A DNA stretch of 64,000 nt from a virus: positions 1-64,000 of IMG/VR virus record IMGVR_UViG_3300032893_000029; one strand, given 5' to 3'. Made by a program: the position numbers and the translations under genes. This document shows positions 12,965 to 61,528 of this stretch, one piece after another. Under the pieces are notes generated by a model that was given only the letters and a program-made list of their open reading frames with translations, was not told where the DNA came from and did no database searches. Numbering within the stretch: position 1 is the first letter of the stretch; each line of letters begins with the position of its first letter.

Positions 12965-14938
12965 TTAGTTACCCCCGCGGCCGAGATTTTTGCCCTTCCA
13001 GTCGCCGACGGCACGTTGTCCGACGCCGGCGAATGGATCCATCCAGGCGCGCGTGTCGCCGAAGAACTCGACGACGGTGTGCCCGTTTTCCGTGCTGCGG
13101 ACCTCGCGGAGCCGCCCATCGGGATGCCCGCCGGGACGGCGTGCATGTGCCTTCGCCGCTTCGTAGACTTTCGTCTCGACTGCGGTGAAGGTCGCTTCGT
13201 CAGCGATCGGGAAGTCCGAGACATCGAACAGTTTCGTGTCCTTCCATTCCTCGCTGTACTGCTTCAGACCAGCGGCGAGCGAGCGCCGATAGTTTGCCAG
13301 ATCTTCGCCCGGCATCGGCGCTCTGGCCTGAGATCCATTCGCCAGATAGACGGCGTCGGCCCTGGCCTGCACCTGTGCGAAAGCCGCGCGCTCTTCCGGC
13401 GTCCGCGGTTTTGTCCGGTTGTCGATCGCATCGATGCGTGTCGCCAGACCGGCGATGGAATCATCGCGGGCGGCTTTGGCCGCTGCATCGGCCGCGGCTT
13501 TGGCGGCGTCGTCGCGGGCTTTCTTCGCCGCGTCGTCACGCTCTTTGCTCTCGCACTCTTCGGCGTCCTTGCGGGCGCGTTTGGCGCGATCGGCGGCCTT
13601 TTCCTTCGGTTCGCCTTCCTTCTCGAATTTGGCGGCGAGCTCGCCTTCTTCGGAATCGTGACGCGACTTGTATTTGTCGTCGTCGTCGTCATCGCGACGC
13701 TTCGAGAAATGCTTGGCGTCGTCGCGGGCCTTCGCGGCGTCGTCACGCGCCTTTTCGGCGTCGTCACGGGCCTTGTCTTTCTGCTCGACGGCGTCCATGC
13801 GCGCGTGCAGAGCATCCATGCGGCCAACCACACCGCCGACGGCATCAGCCACTTTGCTAATGGTGTCGGCGACCTTATCGAGCTTTGCGTCTCTTTCGGC
13901 GTCCTTCCGAGCCCGGTCTTCGGCCGCCTTCTTTTCCTCTTCCGTCATGACAGAGTCTCCACGAGTTTCATTCGGAACGCCTTCTGGATCGCCACCTTTG
14001 TCCCAAACGCCTTGCCCGCAGATGGCGATATGATCGAGCAAAACGGCTTTTCCTTCGACAAGCCAGGTACGGCCTTTGTCGTCATGAAAGCGCTGATCCG
14101 GATCGGCCTTGTTGCCGAGCAGCACGCTTGGCGATGTCGACCAGACCTCGTCGGGATCGGCAAGCCTGTTGCCGGCGTCGAGATCATGGATCTTGGCGAT
14201 GCCCCAGACTTCGTCGCCCTTCAGATAGGGCAACATGATGGCGCCGATGACGCGCTTTCGATATTCCTTCGTCGTCAATGTCGCGCCGGGCGGATGTTCC
14301 CAGATCACCGACAGCCCGTTGCAGCGCGCCAGGAACTCATCGTTGAGATAGAGCGTCGGATCGCGCCAGACGAATTCGTTGAACTTCGGACGGAAAGACT
14401 GCCCGGTTCCGGTGATCCGGATCGCGAACAGCCAGATGTTTTTGTAGCGCTGCGGGCTCGTCAGTTCGCCGGCGGCGATGGCCCTGGCGATGCCGAGCTC
14501 GTCCATCGTCATTCTGTCGAGCGCGATCTTGACGCCGGGATGCAGCGGTTCCGGCGGCTGATCCGCCGGCGCCCAGGCAAAGCCGACATGCTCGGCGTTC
14601 AGCTTCGGGACGAAGCCGGCATCCTTTTCGCTGACGACATCGACGAATGTCGTGAAGTCGACGGGATCAGGCGCGACCGGCGGCGGAGCATCGTCGATCG
14701 TCGGCGGGGGCAGCGGTTGCAGGATCGACCGCGCCAGAAACAACAACTGTCCTTTGGGCCGGCGCCCAATTTCCTCTTCGCATTCCCGCGCCGCGCATTC
14801 TTCCGCGGATTCGCCGTGCTCGATGGCGCCACCGGGCAGACACCAGAAGCCCGGGAAGTCGCTGGTCTGCGACCGCTTCAGAAAGAGAACCTTGTTGTCC
14901 GGCGCCAGGAACAGCACGCCGGCGCCGCGGACTGTCAA
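12965..14938 (-). CDS. NUDIX - DUF2213 prohead protease - scaffold fusion
   Basis: Nudix box GGAIEHGESAEECAARECEEEIG; central IWEHP..LDHIAIC..GVWDKG; KARDDA-repeat coiled-coil scaffold. Confidence 0.85.
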   Translation of the reverse strand: MTVRGAGVLFLAPDNKVLFLKRSQTSDFPGFWCLPGGAIEHGESAEECAARECEEEIGRRPKGQLLFLARSILQPLPPPTIDDAPPPVAPDPVDFTTFVDVVSEKDAGFVPKLNAEHVGFAWAPADQPPEPLHPGVKIALDRMTMDELGIARAIAAGELTSPQRYKNIWLFAIRITGTGQSFRPKFNEFVWRDPTLYLNDEFLARCNGLSVIWEHPPGATLTTKEYRKRVIGAIMLPYLKGDEVWGIAKIHDLDAGNRLADPDEVWSTSPSVLLGNKADPDQRFHDDKGRTWLVEGKAVLLDHIAICGQGVWDKGGDPEGVPNETRGDSVMTEEEKKAAEDRARKDAERDAKLDKVADTISKVADAVGGVVGRMDALHARMDAVEQKDKARDDAEKARDDAAKARDDAKHFSKRRDDDDDDKYKSRHDSEEGELAAKFEKEGEPKEKAADRAKRARKDAEECESKERDDAAKKARDDAAKAAADAAAKAARDDSIAGLATRIDAIDNRTKPRTPEERAAFAQVQARADAVYLANGSQARAPMPGEDLANYRRSLAAGLKQYSEEWKDTKLFDVSDFPIADEATFTAVETKVYEAAKAHARRPGGHPDGRLREVRSTENGHTVVEFFGDTRAWMDPFAGVGQRAVGDWKGKNLGRGGN

Positions 14939-19850: not shown

Positions 19851-20683
19851 CTCGACAGTTCCTTTCTGACCGCTTCGAGGGATTCGAGTCCCTTCTTTGT
19901 CAGCATGTCCGGCGCCGCGCGGTAAAGCGCCGATACCGTATAGAACCACTGCATCCAGCAGCGGCAGAAAATCTCTTCACCGACCGCGGTGTATTGATCG
20001 TAGAAACCCATCGGACCCGGTTTCACCAGCCCGCGTGCCAGGGCCCAATTCCCGCGGAGCATGAAGATCTGCTCGTCGCGTTCCTTGTGGTCCTCGCGGT
20101 AATTGTAGTGCGGCGTCCGCCAGTTCGAATGCCACATCCCGGCAATGGCGCCGCCGTCTCTGGCGAGGATGTCGGAAATCGCGGCCGTCATCTTGTGCGA
20201 CTGGTCGATGAGCACGCGGCGCTCTTCGAACTTCACCAGCCCAAGCGGTTTGGCGATCTGCGCCCTGGTCTCGGCGCGTTTCGCCACATCGGTTCCGCCG
20301 GCGGGGATCGATGTCGCCCAGCCTTGGAAGCGCTGTAGCGTCTTCGCCATCATCTGGTCGCGGTTCAGTCGGATCAGACCGGCCGATGCCATGATGCGGC
20401 GATCGACTTCGGCCCGAAGTGCCGGGCGGACCCGCTCGATGGTGAAGCGCTCGATTCCGCGATGCATCGCCAGGATGCCGCCGCGATCGATGAGCTTGCG
20501 ATAGGTCTCCTCGAGCACCATTCGAAGCTGCCGCTCGAGCTCGTATTCCGGTGTCAGCGTCCTTTCCGCTGCTTCTTTGATTGCCTTCAGCCAGCGATCG
20601 ACGCGCTCCTGGCTGTCGAAGCCGTGCTCGACAAGATCGTTGATCGCCGCGCGGAGAACATCGGAATAGCTCCGGGCAACCAT
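19847..20683 (-). CDS. Head morphogenesis protein (MuF/SPP1 gp7-like)
   Basis: REDHKERD..GEEIFCRC motif; follows the portal gene. Confidence 0.85.
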   Translation of the reverse strand: MVARSYSDVLRAAINDLVEHGFDSQERVDRWLKAIKEAAERTLTPEYELERQLRMVLEETYRKLIDRGGILAMHRGIERFTIERVRPALRAEVDRRIMASAGLIRLNRDQMMAKTLQRFQGWATSIPAGGTDVAKRAETRAQIAKPLGLVKFEERRVLIDQSHKMTAAISDILARDGGAIAGMWHSNWRTPHYNYREDHKERDEQIFMLRGNWALARGLVKPGPMGFYDQYTAVGEEIFCRCWMQWFYTVSALYRAAPDMLTKKGLESLEAVRKELSR

Positions 20684-22167
20684 CAGGGCCTGGCCGGAAG
20701 CTTCCTGATTTCGGCGACGACGTGCGGCCAGCGATCACTGCTGTCGGCGTGCGAATACGGCGTCGCCTTCGGTTCGCCGGGTTCGGTCATCTGCGTCGGC
20801 GGTTCATAGGTCGCGATGTCCGCGATTTCCAGATGGAGCTCAGCCGGGAAGAATTCCTTCTGCTCGTTGATAACCGACTGGACCCACTCGACGACGGTCG
20901 CTTTGTTCGGCTGATCGCACGCCGGCATGATGACTTCGGCCGCGGCGAGCGTCGACCGCATCAGGAAGTCGTGCTTCTTTGCCTTCTCGCTGTCCGGCTC
21001 CGTCAGGAGATTCGGCCATTTCGTCTTGAAGGAATTCTTCGCCTCATAGAAGAACGTCGTGTAATCGACGCCGCCGTACTGCTCCGGGAACTTCGCCTGA
21101 AGCGACTTATAGAACTGCTTGTTCCAGGCGCGGTGCATGACGATCAGATCGAACCAGGCGAACAGCGATTCCATTTCCTCGCGCTTGTCGTCGATGTAGT
21201 GCGCGACATATTTCGCATCCTCTGACCCCGTCGAGAACGCGTGCGCGAAGGTCTCGTTGTTCAGCATCACCGCCGGCATGTCGTCGCCGGACGCGATGTT
21301 TTCGAGGATGTTGCGGCGCGAATTGCCGAAGGCGCCGTCGAGATTCTGCATGTTCAGCGTCTCGACCTTATCCTTCTCGCCGACTTGCAGAACGTTCTCT
21401 GTCTCCGCTTCCTTCAGGAGATTGCGCTTGATCGAGCCGAACTTCTCCGCGATCCAGTCGACGGCCGATGAGACCGTCTGCATCATGACGACGAGCAGGC
21501 CGGCCTTCTTGACCACCATGTCATCCGTCACCATCGAACTGATGAAGGACTTCAGCGGATAGAGACAGGGCTGGTAGACGCTTCGGCCGGTGAAGCCGTA
21601 AGCCGACGGCGTGTAGCTGATATAGATCGGGTCGCCGTGCATGACGACATGGGCGCGGGAGCGGTGATAGGCCGTCCCGGCGATCGCGATGCCGTCGACC
21701 TTCTGGAAATCGACGGAGTTCGGGTCCTGGTTCAAGACCAGCGAGCCCGCAGTATTCAGCGCGTCGAGGATGTTGAAGCTGATGGCGAGCTCGGCGAGCC
21801 TGTCATAGGGCAGCGGTTCCATCGGATCGATGCCGTTTGCCATCAGGCAGACCGATGAAATGCCGTACACCCGCGACATCGTCTTGACGTTCAGGATGTG
21901 CTTCTTGACCTCGAGCGCCTTCCATTCCTTTTCGAAGGCCTCTTTGAGATCCTGTTCCGGGCCGCCGGTGATCGAGATTTCGCGGGCCTGCGACAGCGCC
22001 AGCTTGATCGGGAAGCGCGCGATCTTCGCACCCAGCGGGTGATATTCGAATATCACCTTGCACATTTCGTAGGACGGTTGCGCTCCGGGCTGGAGCTCGT
22101 CGGTGCAGATGAAACTTTGGAGCGAGGTCCCGAGATTTGCGGGACCGATGACGGACGTTTTCGACAT
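20683..22167 (-). CDS. Portal protein (DUF1073-like)
   Basis: 494 aa after the terminase; SRVYG, YHRSR, GFTGRSVYQ motifs. Confidence 0.85.
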   Translation of the reverse strand: MSKTSVIGPANLGTSLQSFICTDELQPGAQPSYEMCKVIFEYHPLGAKIARFPIKLALSQAREISITGGPEQDLKEAFEKEWKALEVKKHILNVKTMSRVYGISSVCLMANGIDPMEPLPYDRLAELAISFNILDALNTAGSLVLNQDPNSVDFQKVDGIAIAGTAYHRSRAHVVMHGDPIYISYTPSAYGFTGRSVYQPCLYPLKSFISSMVTDDMVVKKAGLLVVMMQTVSSAVDWIAEKFGSIKRNLLKEAETENVLQVGEKDKVETLNMQNLDGAFGNSRRNILENIASGDDMPAVMLNNETFAHAFSTGSEDAKYVAHYIDDKREEMESLFAWFDLIVMHRAWNKQFYKSLQAKFPEQYGGVDYTTFFYEAKNSFKTKWPNLLTEPDSEKAKKHDFLMRSTLAAAEVIMPACDQPNKATVVEWVQSVINEQKEFFPAELHLEIADIATYEPPTQMTEPGEPKATPYSHADSSDRWPHVVAEIRKLPARP

Positions 22168-22573: not shown

Positions 22574-22858
22574 CTATCCGATACCGACCGCGACGTTGTT
22601 CGCGTCGGCTTTGATCTTTTCCCAGACTTCGTTCTCGACGCGGTAGAGATATCGCAAGGCGACTTCGCTGTTCCGCGCGCGGGCCTTTTTGATCAGACGC
22701 CAGCAACGCCGGTACCGCGACCTCAGATGCTTGTTGACCATCCGCCAATGCGGACCGCAGATAATCTCGGTGTTGTTGCCGGCCCATTCCTTCGACGCCG
22801 TCCTTCCGCATCCGATGACGCAGCACGGGATTCGGTCTGGCTTCAGCGGCCGGATCAA
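22574..22858 (-). CDS. Small Cys/His zinc-finger-like protein
   Basis: TTG start overlapping the TerL stop; CCVIGC..ICGPHW. Confidence 0.55.
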   Translation of the reverse strand: MIRPLKPDRIPCCVIGCGRTASKEWAGNNTEIICGPHWRMVNKHLRSRYRRCWRLIKKARARNSEVALRYLYRVENEVWEKIKADANNVAVGIG

Positions 22859-24987
22859 TAGCCCTCCGGATTCCCAAGTGCGAGCACGACGCCGAGCAGG
22901 AAGGCGCAAAGCAAATCGCCGGGCTCCTTGCTGTCCTTCTTTTCGTCGATCCGGAATGTCTCGATGTGGTCGAGCAGGAAATTCCGGGTCTGTCCGCCGA
23001 AATCGATGACCTTGTCGTCGGCCGGCTGCGCGATCTTTATCAGGTCGCGCTCGAGATAGGCCGCAACCGCGGTGGCACGTTCGGCAATACCGATGTTCGC
23101 GATCGCGTCGTTGATCGGCAGGATCGGCAGGCGCCAGCGGGCGCCATGCTGATAGACGACGGCGCCGGTCTCCTTGTTGATGACGAAGATACCGAGCGGC
23201 CTTGTCTGCGCCGGCCTTGCGAGTTCGACGAGTCTGCCGACGGCACGCTTCAGCCATTGTTCCGACAGTGCTGTTCCGACCGGTGCGAGATCCCAATCAA
23301 GGATTGTCAGCGCGTTCCCGCCGACCTTGCGGCGACCGAAATAGACGATGCCGGCGCTATCGTTGTCCCTGCCGGTCTTCACGCCGGAAAACATCACGGC
23401 GAACACACTGTCGAGCAGCCGCGGCGGTGTGACGGGCTGGCCGCGGAAGCGCAGCTTTTCGATGTCGAAGAAGCCGTCCGATGCGCGCGAGCTCAAATAG
23501 TTGAACGCTCCGGCGCCGCCGTCGACTTGGTCATCGTGTCCTTTTGGGAACGCGCAGAGCTCATCGATGAATTCCTCGTTCCAGGCGCCGCGGACCAGGT
23601 AGACATTGCCGGCCTCGCATTGATCGGCGAAGGGTTCGGCCCGGGTGCCTTTGTCGCCGGTTTCCCGATCGGCTCTGACGCGCCAGCCGGCGAGCATCGC
23701 GATGTAGCTCTGTGCCTGTTCCTTGCCGGCCTGGCCGGGGTCCTCGTTCAGATGGATGTGGGTTTCTTTGCCGTCGATCTCGGCCGTCGCTTTGACTTCC
23801 TTTCGGACTTCATGCGCCGACTTCTGAAACCGGTTGACGTTCTCGATGTAGTAGCTGGTGTCGTCGGTCGACATCTTCAGCCCGACGGTGAAATCCGGAT
23901 CGGTGCTGTCCGACGGCGCCGAGGCGGCGAGGTCCCATTTCCGGACACGGCGCGTGATCTTCGCATCCGCGGGAACGCGATCGATGATCTTGCCGTCGAA
24001 CCATTTGCGCTGAAACATCCCGCCTTCGCGGGCCGTCGGGCGCTGCTGATACTGTGCGGCGTAGGCGTGCGGGCCCAAGCCCTTCTTCTGCGCTTCGACC
24101 GCTTCCCGGGGGAAGCGTATCGGTTCCAGAAGCTCGCCTTCCTCCTTGCGCCAATCGGCGCCCCATCTGGTGACGCAGCGGCGCGACTTCTCGAATGTCA
24201 TCGGCAGCATGACAACCACGGTATCCGGCACGACTTCGCGCCAGACCCTGCCGATGTCTCGCGGTCCGGTGCATTGCCAGATACCGACCATTGCCGACTT
24301 CGTCAGGCTGTTCAGTCGGCTCAACGCGCCTTCGCGGAAGAGACGCGTCACTTCGGCAAGCTGGTTCTTGTATTCGACCGTCTTCACCGACAGCGGATCG
24401 TCGATGATGAGACGGTCGCCGCGTTTTCCCATCAGCGAAGCAAACGGTGCGCCGAGGCGCCAGCCCGTTGCAGTGTTCTGGAACGAATAGACGCCGGCGG
24501 TCGTTAATTCGATGAGCGGCCAGCGCTCCTGGTACCAGTCCGACTCGATTAGCGCCTTGCAGCGATCGTTGTCGCGATCGGTCAGGGTCTTTTCGTAGGA
24601 CGTGCAGAGATAGCGATAGGTCGAATAGCCCATCGCCCATTCCCATGCCGGCCAGAACACCGACACGATCAGGCTCTTCATGCAGCCCGGCGGAATCTCG
24701 ATGATCAGTCTCGTGATCTCGCCGCGCGTCACCGCCTCGAGGTGTGCGCAGATCAGTTCGATGTGCGGCGACAGGATGAATTCGGCGCGGGGCTCGAGGA
24801 CATGCCAGGCCTCGCGGATAAACCCGACCAGTGTTTTGCAGCGGTCGCGGCTTTCCTGAAGAAGCTCCTCACGCGTCCTGTTGTGCTGGTCCCTCTTCAG
24901 AGCCTCGCGACGCTGCCTCTCCAGCATCACGCGGGATAGCAAGGCCGATTGAGCGGAGAAGGTCCTGGAGGGTGGCGAACTGTTCAT
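22855..24987 (-). CDS. terL: Terminase large subunit with extra C-terminal nuclease-like domain
   Basis: Walker A PPGCMKS, Walker B LIIDDP, YQQRP, nuclease WDLA..DFT..HDDQVD; about 210 extra aa at the C-terminus. Confidence 0.92.
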   Translation of the reverse strand: MNSSPPSRTFSAQSALLSRVMLERQRREALKRDQHNRTREELLQESRDRCKTLVGFIREAWHVLEPRAEFILSPHIELICAHLEAVTRGEITRLIIEIPPGCMKSLIVSVFWPAWEWAMGYSTYRYLCTSYEKTLTDRDNDRCKALIESDWYQERWPLIELTTAGVYSFQNTATGWRLGAPFASLMGKRGDRLIIDDPLSVKTVEYKNQLAEVTRLFREGALSRLNSLTKSAMVGIWQCTGPRDIGRVWREVVPDTVVVMLPMTFEKSRRCVTRWGADWRKEEGELLEPIRFPREAVEAQKKGLGPHAYAAQYQQRPTAREGGMFQRKWFDGKIIDRVPADAKITRRVRKWDLAASAPSDSTDPDFTVGLKMSTDDTSYYIENVNRFQKSAHEVRKEVKATAEIDGKETHIHLNEDPGQAGKEQAQSYIAMLAGWRVRADRETGDKGTRAEPFADQCEAGNVYLVRGAWNEEFIDELCAFPKGHDDQVDGGAGAFNYLSSRASDGFFDIEKLRFRGQPVTPPRLLDSVFAVMFSGVKTGRDNDSAGIVYFGRRKVGGNALTILDWDLAPVGTALSEQWLKRAVGRLVELARPAQTRPLGIFVINKETGAVVYQHGARWRLPILPINDAIANIGIAERATAVAAYLERDLIKIAQPADDKVIDFGGQTRNFLLDHIETFRIDEKKDSKEPGDLLCAFLLGVVLALGNPEGY

Positions 24988-26206: not shown

Positions 26207-26393
26207 TCGACAAGGGTCCGGACAGTCCCCGATCCGGAATCGCCCGTTGAATCTGACGGGTCAAGGGTTTAGAGCAGTTCTGCGCAGGCTGGCGGGGTTC
26301 GGTTCCCGAAACATCCGTAAATCTCGCCTTCCCCTTCTAACGCTGGTCGACCGTTAGGCGCACGTCGACCGTTGCAGCTTGGGGGAGCATCCT

Positions 26394-26612
26394 GTGAGAG
26401 ACCGAACCGTCTTCATCATGCTCGATGCGCTTGCCGTCGATCTGGCGCGATGCAACACGATCGACCGAGCTCAATTTCTGATCGATGAGGCCAAGGCTGC
26501 GGCGGAGCGCAAGATACCGCCGGCACCGCGGGAACTGCCGAAGCTCGGCAAGCTCGAGCCTACCAATCGGAAGGCGCGGCGGGCTAAGGCGAAACGAGAG
26601 CGGGCGCGTTGA
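26394..26612 (+). CDS. Hypothetical protein with Arg-rich tail
   Basis: GGAG RBS and GTG start; C-terminus NRKARRAKAKRERAR. Confidence 0.5.
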   Translation: MRDRTVFIMLDALAVDLARCNTIDRAQFLIDEAKAAAERKIPPAPRELPKLGKLEPTNRKARRAKAKRERAR

Positions 26613-27046
26613 GCCGGCCGAAGCGGAAACCGGTGCCGATCGCGACGCGTCGGGCGGTGTGTCGCCGACAAAACGGGACCTGTAAGTGCGGCTGCGGGGA
26701 GCCGGTGTTTGTCGAGCGGGGGCGGCGGACGCATTTCGATCACGAGCCCGCGTTGATCCTTCGGGACATCAATGCCGACGGCAGCGATTACGATCCGCCA
26801 CAGCATTCCGTCGACCACCTCGATGCTTATGCACACATTTCTCACGCCAGGCGGAAGACTTCGGGGCTCGGTGCGACGACGGCGGGATCTGATATCGGGA
26901 AGCGGAAAAAGGAGCGACGGCGCGCCAAAGGCCAGAAGCCGAAACAATGGTGGATGTCGAGACCGATGCCGAAACGCAAAACGGTCTGGCCGAAACGGAA
27001 ACTGGCGAAGGGTCGCGGTCTTGCGCGTCGGCCGCATCCGCGGTAG
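26609..27046 (+). CDS. HNH-like endonuclease
   Basis: RQNGTCKCGCG..HFDHEPAL..HARRKT. Confidence 0.65.
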   Translation: MSRPKRKPVPIATRRAVCRRQNGTCKCGCGEPVFVERGRRTHFDHEPALILRDINADGSDYDPPQHSVDHLDAYAHISHARRKTSGLGATTAGSDIGKRKKERRRAKGQKPKQWWMSRPMPKRKTVWPKRKLAKGRGLARRPHPR

Positions 27047-27074
27047 GCCGGACAAACCGATTTGCTTACACCCC

Positions 27075-27378
27075 GGAAGGGCGGGGCCGGCGATAGCGAG
27101 CCAGAGAGATTCCGGAGCTCTGGTGTTGCAGTCCGGTCCCGCCCGTAGCGGGGATCGCAGTGGGAAACGGATGATGTCCGTAGCGACCCACCGAAGGGGC
27201 GGCGCTCTTCCGACTATGCCGGCTCCCGGTACGATTCTCGGAAGCGTTGCAGGCAGACGAAACGGTCGAGTAGGCAGAGGTCGCGGGTGCGGGTCCCGCT
27301 TGGCGCCGGCGGAAGACGCGACGCCAATAGCTCAGAACCCGGGTAAGAGAGAGCGCTGCCGAAAGACCGGCCTTCCCC
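27075..27378 (+). ncRNA. Putative structured ncRNA with circularly permuted tRNA-like (YrlA-like) module
   Basis: Intergenic with multiple long helices; T-arm (27283-27299), acceptor-like stem (27300-27327) and D-arm (27330-27354) closed by GGCAG/CTGCC and CGGTC/GACCG helices. Confidence 0.6.
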
Positions 27379-27444
27379 ACCTCACCAAGAAATGTTAATG
27401 CCGGAACTGCCACGCGTCGCAGCGCGAGCTCAGGAGAACGCCCG

Positions 27445-27669
27445 ATGAAACACATCTTCATCCTCATGCTGATCTTCAACCGGGAACCGATGGTTCGGGT
27501 CGGAAGCTTCGACACCAAAAAGGCGTGCGATGCCGCCGGCTTCCCTCTGACCTACGGCGGAGTGGTGGAGGAAATGAGGAGCAAAGGCTGGATCAGGGAG
27601 GGCCAGTTAGTCAGCATCAGCGGAAGATATGCTGACGATTACACATGCGTTATGGCCAACGGCAGATGA
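27445..27669 (+). CDS. Hypothetical protein
   Basis: AGGAG RBS; FDTKKACDAAG motif. Confidence 0.6.
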   Translation: MKHIFILMLIFNREPMVRVGSFDTKKACDAAGFPLTYGGVVEEMRSKGWIREGQLVSISGRYADDYTCVMANGR

Positions 27670-27884
27670 GGCCCGCCATGCGGATTCGGCCCGACAGCGC
27701 CTTCATGCATTTCCATCGAGAGAACGTAAGCGGCGCCCTTATGCGCCGACTCTTGCGGATCAGATCGGTCTTCCGATCCTACAAACGGCTGATCTATCCC
27801 AACATGCCGTGGATCGGCGATGTGCCACGCGAGAACGTCGCGCTGATCCGGATGCGGGTGCAGGCGGCGAGGAAGCGTCGATGA
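27666..27884 (+). CDS. Hypothetical protein
   Basis: ATGA-coupled ORF. Confidence 0.45.
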   Translation: MRPAMRIRPDSAFMHFHRENVSGALMRRLLRIRSVFRSYKRLIYPNMPWIGDVPRENVALIRMRVQAARKRR

Positions 27885-60993: not shown

Positions 60994-61145
60994 CTAGAGC
61001 ACCGGCTTTCGCCGTCTGCCTTCACCATAGGATGCCCTACATCAGAACTGCAGGAGCATCAGCTTTCTTCGTCTTTCAGCCACCAGGACCGTTGTCGTGT
61101 TTGTCATGAAAACGACTCCTCTGTTTCGACTCGCACCCTGCCATA

Positions 61146-61179
61146 GAAAAAGGGCCCGGAGCTATGGCGCCCGGGCCCT
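61146..61179 (-). terminator. Terminator after the tmRNA coding piece
   Basis: GGGCCCGG/CCGGGCCC followed by TTTT on the minus strand. Confidence 0.65.
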
Positions 61180-61184
61180 CTCCT

Positions 61185-61500
61185 TCTGTTGCCAGGGCCC
61201 CTTAAGGGGCCCCCGGAGCTCAGGCCGCTACGCGGTCCGCTCCAGCGAACGTATTGTCGTTCGCATCTATGTTGCCCGCGGGTCTCCTGTGAGGCCTTCC
61301 CGCCCGTCGATCCTGTTTCGTCCCCTTATCGCCCACCGGCCAGACTGGTTACTGGGGCAATTCTGCCGCAAGCGGCGCGACCGTCGGTCCCCCGAGCGGA
61401 CTCGCGATGGGCGTTTCGGTGCCAACCGAAACTGGTGGAGACGCCGGGTACCGCCCCCGGGTCCGGCTCGATCCGTCCTCACGATCACTGATTTGCGAGC
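61185..61500 (-). ncRNA. ssrA: Two-piece (circularly permuted) tmRNA; outer ends approximate
   Basis: Acceptor piece ends CCCGGCGTCTCCACCA at 61433; coding piece starts GGGGACGAAACAGGATCGAC at 61325; G3-U70 pair; tag ANDNTFAGADRVAA* at 61264-61220; GGCAACAGAA near the 3' end. Confidence 0.92.
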
Positions 61501-61528
61501 GGCGGGACCATAGCGCCGGCGCGGACAA

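Follow-up and report, generated by a model that had tools for sequence, protein, structure and literature searches.

A 64,000-nt stretch of viral DNA (hereafter the window), the first 64 kb of the 73,635-nt IMG/VR virus record IMGVR_UViG_3300032893_000029, raises the question of what kind of RNA is specified by an element at positions 27186-27378 of its plus strand, where the parts of a tRNA occur with the 3′ half ahead of the 5′ half. We found that this element is a structured, conserved non-coding RNA, one of ten distinct sequences that form a family in 13 records (the window and nine relatives). It is conserved in phages of unrelated types, its shape is kept by compensatory changes, and no phage Ro60 gene accompanies it in the nine family records searched. 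We rate it as a Y-RNA-type tRNA mimic on a new handle. Positions ~27186-27378 cover the conserved unit, whose limits are taken from conservation. The parts of the RNA in the window are the following.

27186-27378 (+): conserved RNA unit of leader, scaffold and tRNA-like head, delimited by a covariance model and by conservation in relatives
27207-27244 (+): P1 hairpin, CTTCCGA (27207-27213) paired with TCGGAAG (27238-27244), with a 24-nt loop that has GATTC at its end
27252-27254 (+): Px 5′ strand GGC, partner GCC at 27370-27372
27255-27262 (+): 8-nt bulge AGACGAAA on the 5′ strand between Px and P2, no residues opposite
27263-27267 (+): P2 5′ strand CGGTC
27268-27272 (+): internal loop 5′ strand GAGTA, between P2 and P3
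27273-27277 (+): P3 5′ strand GGCAG, the analogue of an anticodon stem
27278-27355 (+): permuted tRNA-like head, recognized by a partial Rfam YrlA match, a shuffle test and pairing in relatives
27278-27282 (+): variable loop AGGTC
27283-27299 (+): T arm GCGGG-TGCGGGT-CCCGC
27300-27327 (+): closed acceptor-like hairpin TTGGCG...CGCCAA, sealed by a 14-nt structured loop
27328-27329 (+): TA linker
27330-27354 (+): D arm GCTC...GAGC with a 17-nt D loop
27355 (+): G (G26)
27356-27360 (+): P3 3′ strand CTGCC
27361-27364 (+): internal loop 3′ strand GAAA
27365-27369 (+): P2 3′ strand GACCG
27370-27373 (+): Px 3′ strand GCC, then T

Each of the tRNA-like motifs listed in the original prediction, which had been made from the letters of the window, sits exactly where it had been placed. 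The permuted order, with a helix in place of the anticodon arm, was likewise borne out by the order of the motifs and by a pattern search: the succession of T arm, 10-40 nt, TAGCTCA, 5-25 nt and GAGC occurs once in the window and in none of 100 dinucleotide-preserving shuffles. Since the anticodon-like strands (GGCAG/CTGCC) and the acceptor-like strands (TTGGCG/CGCCAA) pair inside one module, the head is a permuted tRNA body and not two adjacent tRNAs. It possesses neither an anticodon loop nor a free acceptor end, P3 running on into the internal loop and P2, and thus it can neither decode nor be charged. The T loop had been described as non-canonical, which is true of the window (TGCGGGT) but not of the relatives (TTCGAGC, TTCGATC or TTCAAGT). 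The CGGGT of the window T loop (27290-27294) is complementary to ACCCG in the D loop (27337-27341), as read from the sequence; such a pairing would preserve the loop-loop contact, that is, the elbow.

Two long open reading frames (ORFs) overlap the element, 26772-27398 on the plus strand and 27066-27518 on the minus strand. The G+C content at third codon positions (GC3) is equal (~0.65-0.70) in all three frames over 27050-27380, unlike the flanking genes, where one frame reaches 0.75-0.82. A Pfam search of both overlapping ORFs gave no match. Given this lack of a frame-specific GC3 signal and of Pfam matches, the element was classified as non-coding.

Family members come from viral, metagenome and GenBank phage collections, and three of them belong to cultured phages: Pseudanabaena phage Pam5, Rhizobium phage RHph_N3_2 and Microcystis phage Mvi-Yong1342-1 (Mvi). 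A motif scan of viral contigs gave 118 stretches, mostly tandem tRNAs or canonical YrlA-like RNAs, among which two loci (L089 and L104) share the flanks of the tRNA-like module of the window. With a stricter pattern, family loci made up 4 of 24 metagenome stretches and all 4 viral stretches; in 185,579 species genomes the same pattern gave 12 stretches and no family member. Eight of these 12 represent one enterobacterial sequence without a T arm (in Leclercia, Silvania and Pseudenterobacter), and the other four are other YrlA-like or tRNA-adjacent sequences. A covariance model (R1) built from window sequence 27202-27378 and a hand-drawn structure scores nine relative loci at 60.9-68.2 bits (62 bits for Pam5). 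The next-best matches, at 38 bits or less, are canonical YrlA-like RNAs aligned over the tRNA-like head or core only. No copy was found with R1 in 80 loci around related large terminases (best score 13.8 bits, E 0.68). Scaffold-based scans of viral sequences returned 14 and 9 stretches, of which 3 and 4 belong to the family, and added locus L263. The window RNA has no blastn match in 50,697 GenBank phage records; queries from the relatives (groups A and B, and Mvi) reached Pam5, Mvi-Yong1342-1 and RHph_N3_2. The proteins encoded on either side of the element, a 145-aa ORF (26609-27046, no family) and a 74-aa ORF (27445-27669), were also used as search handles, with weak matches for the former and none for the latter.

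Conservation in the relatives runs from ~20 nt before P1 to a few nucleotides past Px, and the RNAs of the family are ~115-260 nt in size. In GenBank, no RNA-like feature is annotated under the Pam5 and RHph_N3_2 matches, and part of the Mvi match coincides only with an annotated hypothetical protein; no RNA gene is mentioned for Pam5 in the available part of the Pam5 paper (PMC9382816). The phage backgrounds are unrelated. Group A and Pam5 copies have a P22-like or small-terminase context; in group B (L217 3-1025, L223 2-808, L248 1390-1809) an N4-like virion RNA polymerase gene (phrog_2206, E down to 3e-126) converges on the RNA, which lies just beyond the part encoding the C-terminus.

The pairing was analyzed in a six-member alignment, which was fitted to the model and hence leans towards it. 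In this alignment 98.9% of cells are paired and both sides change in 18 of the 32 pairs; none of 500 shuffles reached any of the five measures, and partners slid out of register were 32-46% paired. RNAalifold yields the same 32 pairs. MAFFT alone misaligned P1 and the D arm. Because the fitted alignment is flawed, the helices of all ten members were parsed by hand, with the following results.

P1: five helix sequences in the ten members, every one fully paired (CTTCCGA/TCGGAAG, TTCCGA/TCGGAG, GTTGCC/GGCAAC, CAGCGA/TCGCTG, CTGCGA/TCGCAG)
Px: GGC/GCC in six members, GGG/CCC in three, GGGG/CCCC in RHph_N3_2; one mismatch, in L219
P2: six versions, all paired (CGGTC/GACCG, CCGGT/ACCGG, CGGGT/ACCCG, GTGG/CCAC, GTGG/CTAC, CGGGT/GCCCG)
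P3: GGCAG/CTGCC, GGCAA/TTGCC, GGCAC/GTGCT
T stem: GCGGG/CCCGC; in Pam5 GCTAG/CTAGC
Acceptor stem: sequence differs per group, with 6 of 7 pairs kept (4 of 7 in Pam5)

The inner pairs of the acceptor hairpin covary as well. The D stem is invariant across members and is therefore uninformative on covariation. A check of covariation on collected homologs had been proposed with the original prediction; on the measures used here, compensatory changes hold the helices. The minimum-energy fold of the window sequence recovers Px (AGGC with GCCU), P2, P3, the T arm and the acceptor arm. We also considered whether the 5′ leader forms a pseudoknot with the P1 loop, but shuffled sequences reach comparable complementarity (per-sequence p 0.10-0.81; Fisher p = 0.18 over 5 lineages) and the idea was rejected; the candidates were CCGCGU/GCGCGG in group A, CCAUGG/CCAUGG in Pam5, GAUGGU/GCCAUC in RHph_N3_2 and GGGU/GCCC in group B.

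The unpaired parts of the stem are conserved in sequence. The bulge has the consensus A(G/C/U)(A/G)CG..A, in which A1, C4, G5 and the last A are kept in nine of the ten members; the bulge of L219 is 9 nt long and shifted in register. The internal loop under the anticodon-like stem reads GAGUA/GAAA in the window, CAGUA/GAAU in group A and Pam5, and AAGUA/GAAA in L263. AGUA opposite GAA is the sequence signature of the loop E or bulged-G (sarcin-ricin type) motif, so that the loop-E-like motif put forward for the window is supported as a putative one. Group B and Mvi (AUUA opposite GAAAA, GAAAG or AAAAG) and RHph_N3_2 (CAGUA/AAAU) depart from this signature.

The scaffold of the family thus consists of P1, Px (3-4 bp), the 8-nt A..CG..A bulge, P2, the AGUA/GAA-type loop and P3. 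In Mvi-Yong1342-1, L263 and RHph_N3_2 the first four of these parts (P1, Px, bulge and P2) are kept, and the head is replaced by inserts of 6, 23 or 28 nt. Because these three members have a plain hairpin insert in place of the tRNA-like head, the head is an optional module on P3, and the view of the tRNA mimic as the core of the RNA had to be abandoned. Group A, Pam5 and RHph_N3_2 (L204 1441-1483; L250 3040-3076; L275 2542-2592) carry an additional hairpin with conserved ends, GGCAGAGUGG ... CUAGAUGCC, which separates P1 from Px. As the window, group B, Mvi and L263 lack this hairpin, it looks like a second optional module of the scaffold.

We compared the element with known RNA families using a permissive Rfam scan of 26900-27550. 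A relationship to YrlA had been suggested, and YrlA (RF02553) is indeed the only family that touches the element; its score of 20.8 bits (E 0.088) lies far below the cut-off of 69, so that the RNA is not a demonstrable YrlA member. The match covers model positions 23-85 only, and positions 1-22 and 86-114, which form the handle, are unaligned. The relatives score 25.3-31.5 bits against the YrlA model, and canonical Ro-linked viral YrlA-like copies likewise stay under 69 bits (31-50 bits). The predicted lack of a Ro gene was upheld: TROVE is absent from the window and from the whole 73.6 kb record. The TROVE search (PF05731) covered nine family records, with three metagenome records left out, and found no TROVE gene in any of the nine, which include three complete GenBank phage genomes and one record with a completeness rating of 92%. 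As a control, we took five canonical viral YrlA-like records, picked among the higher scorers (40-50 bits); in all five a TROVE gene lies within ~2 kb of the RNA. In Chen et al. 2014 (PMC4201824), phage YrlAs were found by searching beside TROVE genes, and GNCGAAN0-1G on the 5′ strand is described as the likely Rsr contact. The window has GACGAA in the bulge, then two nucleotides and G, and misses this motif by one spacing nucleotide.

The family and YrlA share a phage occurrence, D-arm and T-arm sequences that are tRNA-like, and the order of the parts: anticodon-like stem, variable loop, T arm, sealed acceptor arm, UA, D arm and stem. In both, the head is carried by a stem whose internal loop is asymmetric, with a CGAA-containing motif on the 5′ strand. 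The family differs from YrlA in that its handle does not align to the model and no Ro60 gene accompanies it in nine records (as opposed to 5/5 for the canonical viral RNAs). Moreover, a 5′ hairpin domain, P1, is added outside the stem, so that the stem is not built from the two ends of the RNA; a large loop on the 5′ strand has nothing opposite; there is an AGUA/GAA loop below the anticodon-like stem and a long acceptor arm; and the head is dispensable in three of the ten members. Y RNAs are 80-130 nt in length, and their paired 5′ and 3′ ends make up a long stem (PMC4201824). In the window, the conserved unit measures ~190 nt, though the transcript may differ in length, and a 5′ hairpin domain precedes the Px-P2-P3 stem, so that the termini of this unit do not close it. 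Salmonella YrlB and Deinococcus Yrn1 are Y RNAs without a tRNA-like domain (PMC4201824). Such RNAs share with the family a modular design of handle plus loop, and their counterparts would be Mvi-Yong1342-1, L263 and RHph_N3_2.

Other known RNAs resemble the element in single traits. Permuted tRNA genes, known in algae, and two-piece tmRNA genes also have a tRNA-like body with the 3′ half ahead of the 5′ half. In contrast to these, the RNA has no anticodon loop, CCA, free acceptor end or tag reading frame, its acceptor arm is a closed hairpin, and ARAGORN and the Rfam tRNA and tmRNA models make no call. Both the seven-nucleotide anticodon loop and the free CCA-bearing acceptor end of a functional tRNA are missing; there is no tmRNA match in 26900-27550 at E <= 10, and the tmRNA gene of this phage lies elsewhere. 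GOLLD and ROOL RNAs are associated with tRNA genes. Like them, the family is a phage-borne structured RNA with no assigned function that often adjoins tRNA genes; unlike them, it is far smaller (~115-260 nt), and the GOLLD, ROOL, tRNA and tmRNA models of Rfam gave no match over 26900-27550 at E <= 10. No Rfam family covers the scaffold. A keyword search of the literature returned nothing on Ro-less phage YrlA-like RNAs or on this scaffold, which is not proof of absence.

Signals and genes around the copies differ between phages. In Pam5, a promoter-like TTGACG-17 nt-CATAAT lies upstream of the RNA and a terminator-like hairpin CCCCAGCC...GGCTGGGG followed by T5 lies downstream (both by eye and unscored); the two sites flank the RNA alone. 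In Mvi, an extended −10-like TGgTATAAA, also found by eye, is located ~7 nt ahead of the conserved 5′ end. Several copies adjoin tRNA genes or parts of them. In L263 a tRNA-Gly begins 5 nt after the RNA, and in L249 (21-60) the RNA comes after the 3′ end of a tRNA gene. In L104 (270-330) the 5′ half of apparently the same tRNA, ending in the anticodon loop, is fused directly to the RNA leader, which suggests that a deletion may have removed the tRNA 3′ half and a small hairpin. An RNA inserted as an intron into the L104 tRNA was rejected, since the acceptor strand of the tRNA 5′ half does not pair with that of the module and an intact tRNA lies upstream in L249. In RHph_N3_2 (L275 2334-2421, MN988526.1), the scaffold RNA is preceded at ~75 nt by an unannotated ~88-nt tRNA-like sequence with CCACCA at its end and, by eye, a GUA (Tyr-type) anticodon loop; ARAGORN makes no call. 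The 690-nt intergenic region of this phage may hold further RNA elements downstream. The group A RNAs are flanked by a repeated motif, AGTTTCCGCG upstream and AGTTTC(C/T)GCGA downstream (L204 1385-1400 and 1601-1625; L219, same region), and a conserved stretch of ~35 nt follows the RNA in L204 and L219, which L207 does not share. The group A RNA may be longer, or the motif may be a repeated regulatory site.

What does the RNA do? It is plausible, though we hesitate to call it probable, that 27186-27378 (+) encodes a trans-acting small phage RNA of Y-RNA-like type, composed of a protein-binding handle and a swappable head. The scaffold would bind a host factor, the tRNA-shaped head would recruit or sequester a protein that recognizes the elbow or body of tRNA, and during infection the RNA would serve, much like a Y RNA, as an adaptor or sponge. 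Host Ro60/Rsr is the most specific candidate for the partner of the handle, though not an established one, as the bulge resembles the Rsr motif. Of the decoy roles proposed in the original prediction, those for Ro/PNPase and for tRNA-sensing defences are conjectural, and the one for anticodon nucleases is unlikely in view of the missing anticodon loop; charging, in turn, is made unlikely by the sealed acceptor end. With greater reserve, we suggest that the family could be an undescribed modular class of phage RNAs with interchangeable heads, one of them a sealed tRNA body without an anticodon. Such RNAs would tether or sequester a host tRNA-recognizing enzyme or defence protein, as a Ro-independent counterpart of Y RNAs in phages of Rhizobiales, of cyanobacterial cultures and of the N4-like type. 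Permuted tRNA mimics have so far been understood only within Ro60-bound Y RNAs, found beside Ro60 genes; here the same head stands on a different conserved handle, in phages without Ro60, and can give way to a plain hairpin. Two questions that YrlA leaves entangled, what the handle binds and what purpose the tRNA shape serves, are thereby set apart. With three members in cultured phages (Pam5, RHph_N3_2 and Mvi-Yong1342-1), expression, partners and phenotype are directly testable. If the partner is host Ro60, this would be the first case of a phage hijacking the host Ro system by RNA alone, and if not, a new RNA-protein system.

Several points weigh against a trans-acting, Y-RNA-like function. 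The family comprises 10 distinct sequences only, from ~5 lineages, and the share of members with a head (7/10) is biased, since the first searches demanded tRNA-like motifs. In the model-fitted alignment P1 is misplaced for L207 and L219, and its columns are missing for L204. The core 27186-27378 is no more stable than shuffles (z = +0.36), so that support for it comes from covariation and not from stability. Strict GNCGAAN0-1G is present in one of ten members (GNCGAA in two, and CGAA within the bulge in seven). No conserved neighbour protein was found across the family loci, and consequently there is no genomic hint to a partner. Finally, the surroundings of the window copy yielded neither a promoter-like nor a terminator-like site, and this copy could be co-transcribed with the flanking ORFs.

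The same observations bear on the other explanations. The RNA might be a true divergent Y RNA that uses a host-encoded Ro60/Rsr, by which the phage would reprogramme or block the Rsr/PNPase RNA-decay machine of the host; this we regard as rather doubtful. It would explain the YrlA topology, YrlA as the only Rfam match, and the asymmetric loop on the 5′ strand, in which GACGAA of the window and CGAA of seven members resemble the likely Rsr contact (PMC4201824) and which is similar to the motif region of the Rhizobium etli YrlA row (Chen et al. 2014, supplementary text 2); the tRNA-less members would parallel the Y RNAs without a tRNA-like domain. Ro60 genes are listed in Rhizobiales and cyanobacteria (Chen et al. 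2014 supplement, PMC4201824), which are the host groups of the cultured members, and in our tblastn search TROVE matches turned up in 7 of 72,556 records (E <= 1e-10), on plasmids of Rhizobium, Bosea and Picosynechococcus. However, the strict motif is absent from the window and all but one member, the YrlA handle positions are unaligned in the window, TROVE accompanies each of the canonical viral controls but none of the nine family records, and Ro60 has a patchy distribution in bacteria.

In our view the RNA is unlikely to serve a tRNA or early-gene transcript as a cis-acting or processing element (e.g. a stabiliser, or a structured spacer directing RNase P/RNase Z cuts) with no function in trans. 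The tRNA genes or parts adjoining the L263, L249, L104 and RHph_N3_2 copies speak for such a role, as does the position of the window copy between same-strand ORFs with no recognizable promoter or terminator, yet the Pam5 sites bracket the RNA alone, the scaffold is conserved across phages with unrelated neighbour genes, and no tRNA gene lies near the window copy (none was called there by ARAGORN). We consider it quite improbable that the element is a decaying tRNA-derived relic that no longer functions, e.g. of a tRNA pair after rearrangement or of a permuted tRNA or tmRNA that has been broken. Its T loop (TGCGGGT) and 17-nt D loop do deviate from the tRNA consensus, deletions occur at the locus, as in L104, and the same phage has a permuted tmRNA gene elsewhere; against this, compensatory changes keep the helices across lineages, the anticodon-like and acceptor-like strands pair within one module as they would not in a tandem tRNA pair, and the two odd loops of the window are complementary to each other, which would preserve their contact. 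Protein coding by either overlapping ORF is extremely improbable: both frames are open, but GC3 is flat as opposed to the flanking genes, Pfam gives no match, and the relatives show indels that are not multiples of three together with paired substitutions.

The region upstream of the conserved unit was analyzed separately. The original prediction had joined ~300 nt into one RNA, an extent that we could not confirm: the conserved unit is ~190 nt, and 27075-27185 is absent from all nine other distinct family sequences. The helices predicted in this part exist nonetheless, as found by an inverted-repeat search and in the sequence.

27079-27090 with 27133-27144 (+): upstream helix, 12 nt, 92% complementary
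27160-27191 (+): upstream hairpin, GTGGG (27160-27164) with CCCAC (27187-27191)
27167-27171 with 27177-27181 (+): inner helix of this hairpin, ACGGA with TCCGT

The region 27060-27190 folds far better than its shuffles (z = −3.54, 0/200 as good). For the proposed GGAAGG/CCTTCC closing pairing, the complementarity is present, GGAAGGGCGG (27075-27084) pairing with CCGGCCTTCC (27367-27376) over 10 nt at 90%, but a rival partner, GAAGG at 27193-27197, is nearer. This GAAGG belongs to a 20-nt direct repeat of 75% identity, by which the RNA leader (27186-27205) is duplicated 118 nt upstream (27068-27087); the upstream copy marks the start of the window-specific stable hairpin region. The 5′ flank and the 3′ tail do not form a closing helix in a conserved register, and such a helix was left aside.

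The record of the window phage has direct terminal repeats and a G+C content of 60.7%. Contigs of two sequencing runs match the window identically where they overlap it; 27175-27732 is outside their coverage. Rightward genes begin near 26379, and the leftward structural gene block ends with the following genes.

20683-22167 (−): portal gene, within the leftward structural block, near its end
22855-24987 (−): large terminase gene, at the end of the leftward structural block, with portal

At gathering scores, the sole Rfam match in the window is a permuted tmRNA (61220-61481). It belongs to a permuted tmRNA gene of alphaproteobacterial type at 61129-61525 (−), for which ARAGORN gives the tag peptide ANDNTFAGADRVAA and Rfam gives scores of 65.5 bits (alpha_tmRNA) and 64.9 bits (tmRNA_permuted). 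This type of tmRNA hints at an alphaproteobacterial host, or at captured host DNA. In the structural gene block, a 657-aa protein (12965-14938, minus strand) possesses an N-terminal NUDIX domain (PF00293, 9e-19).

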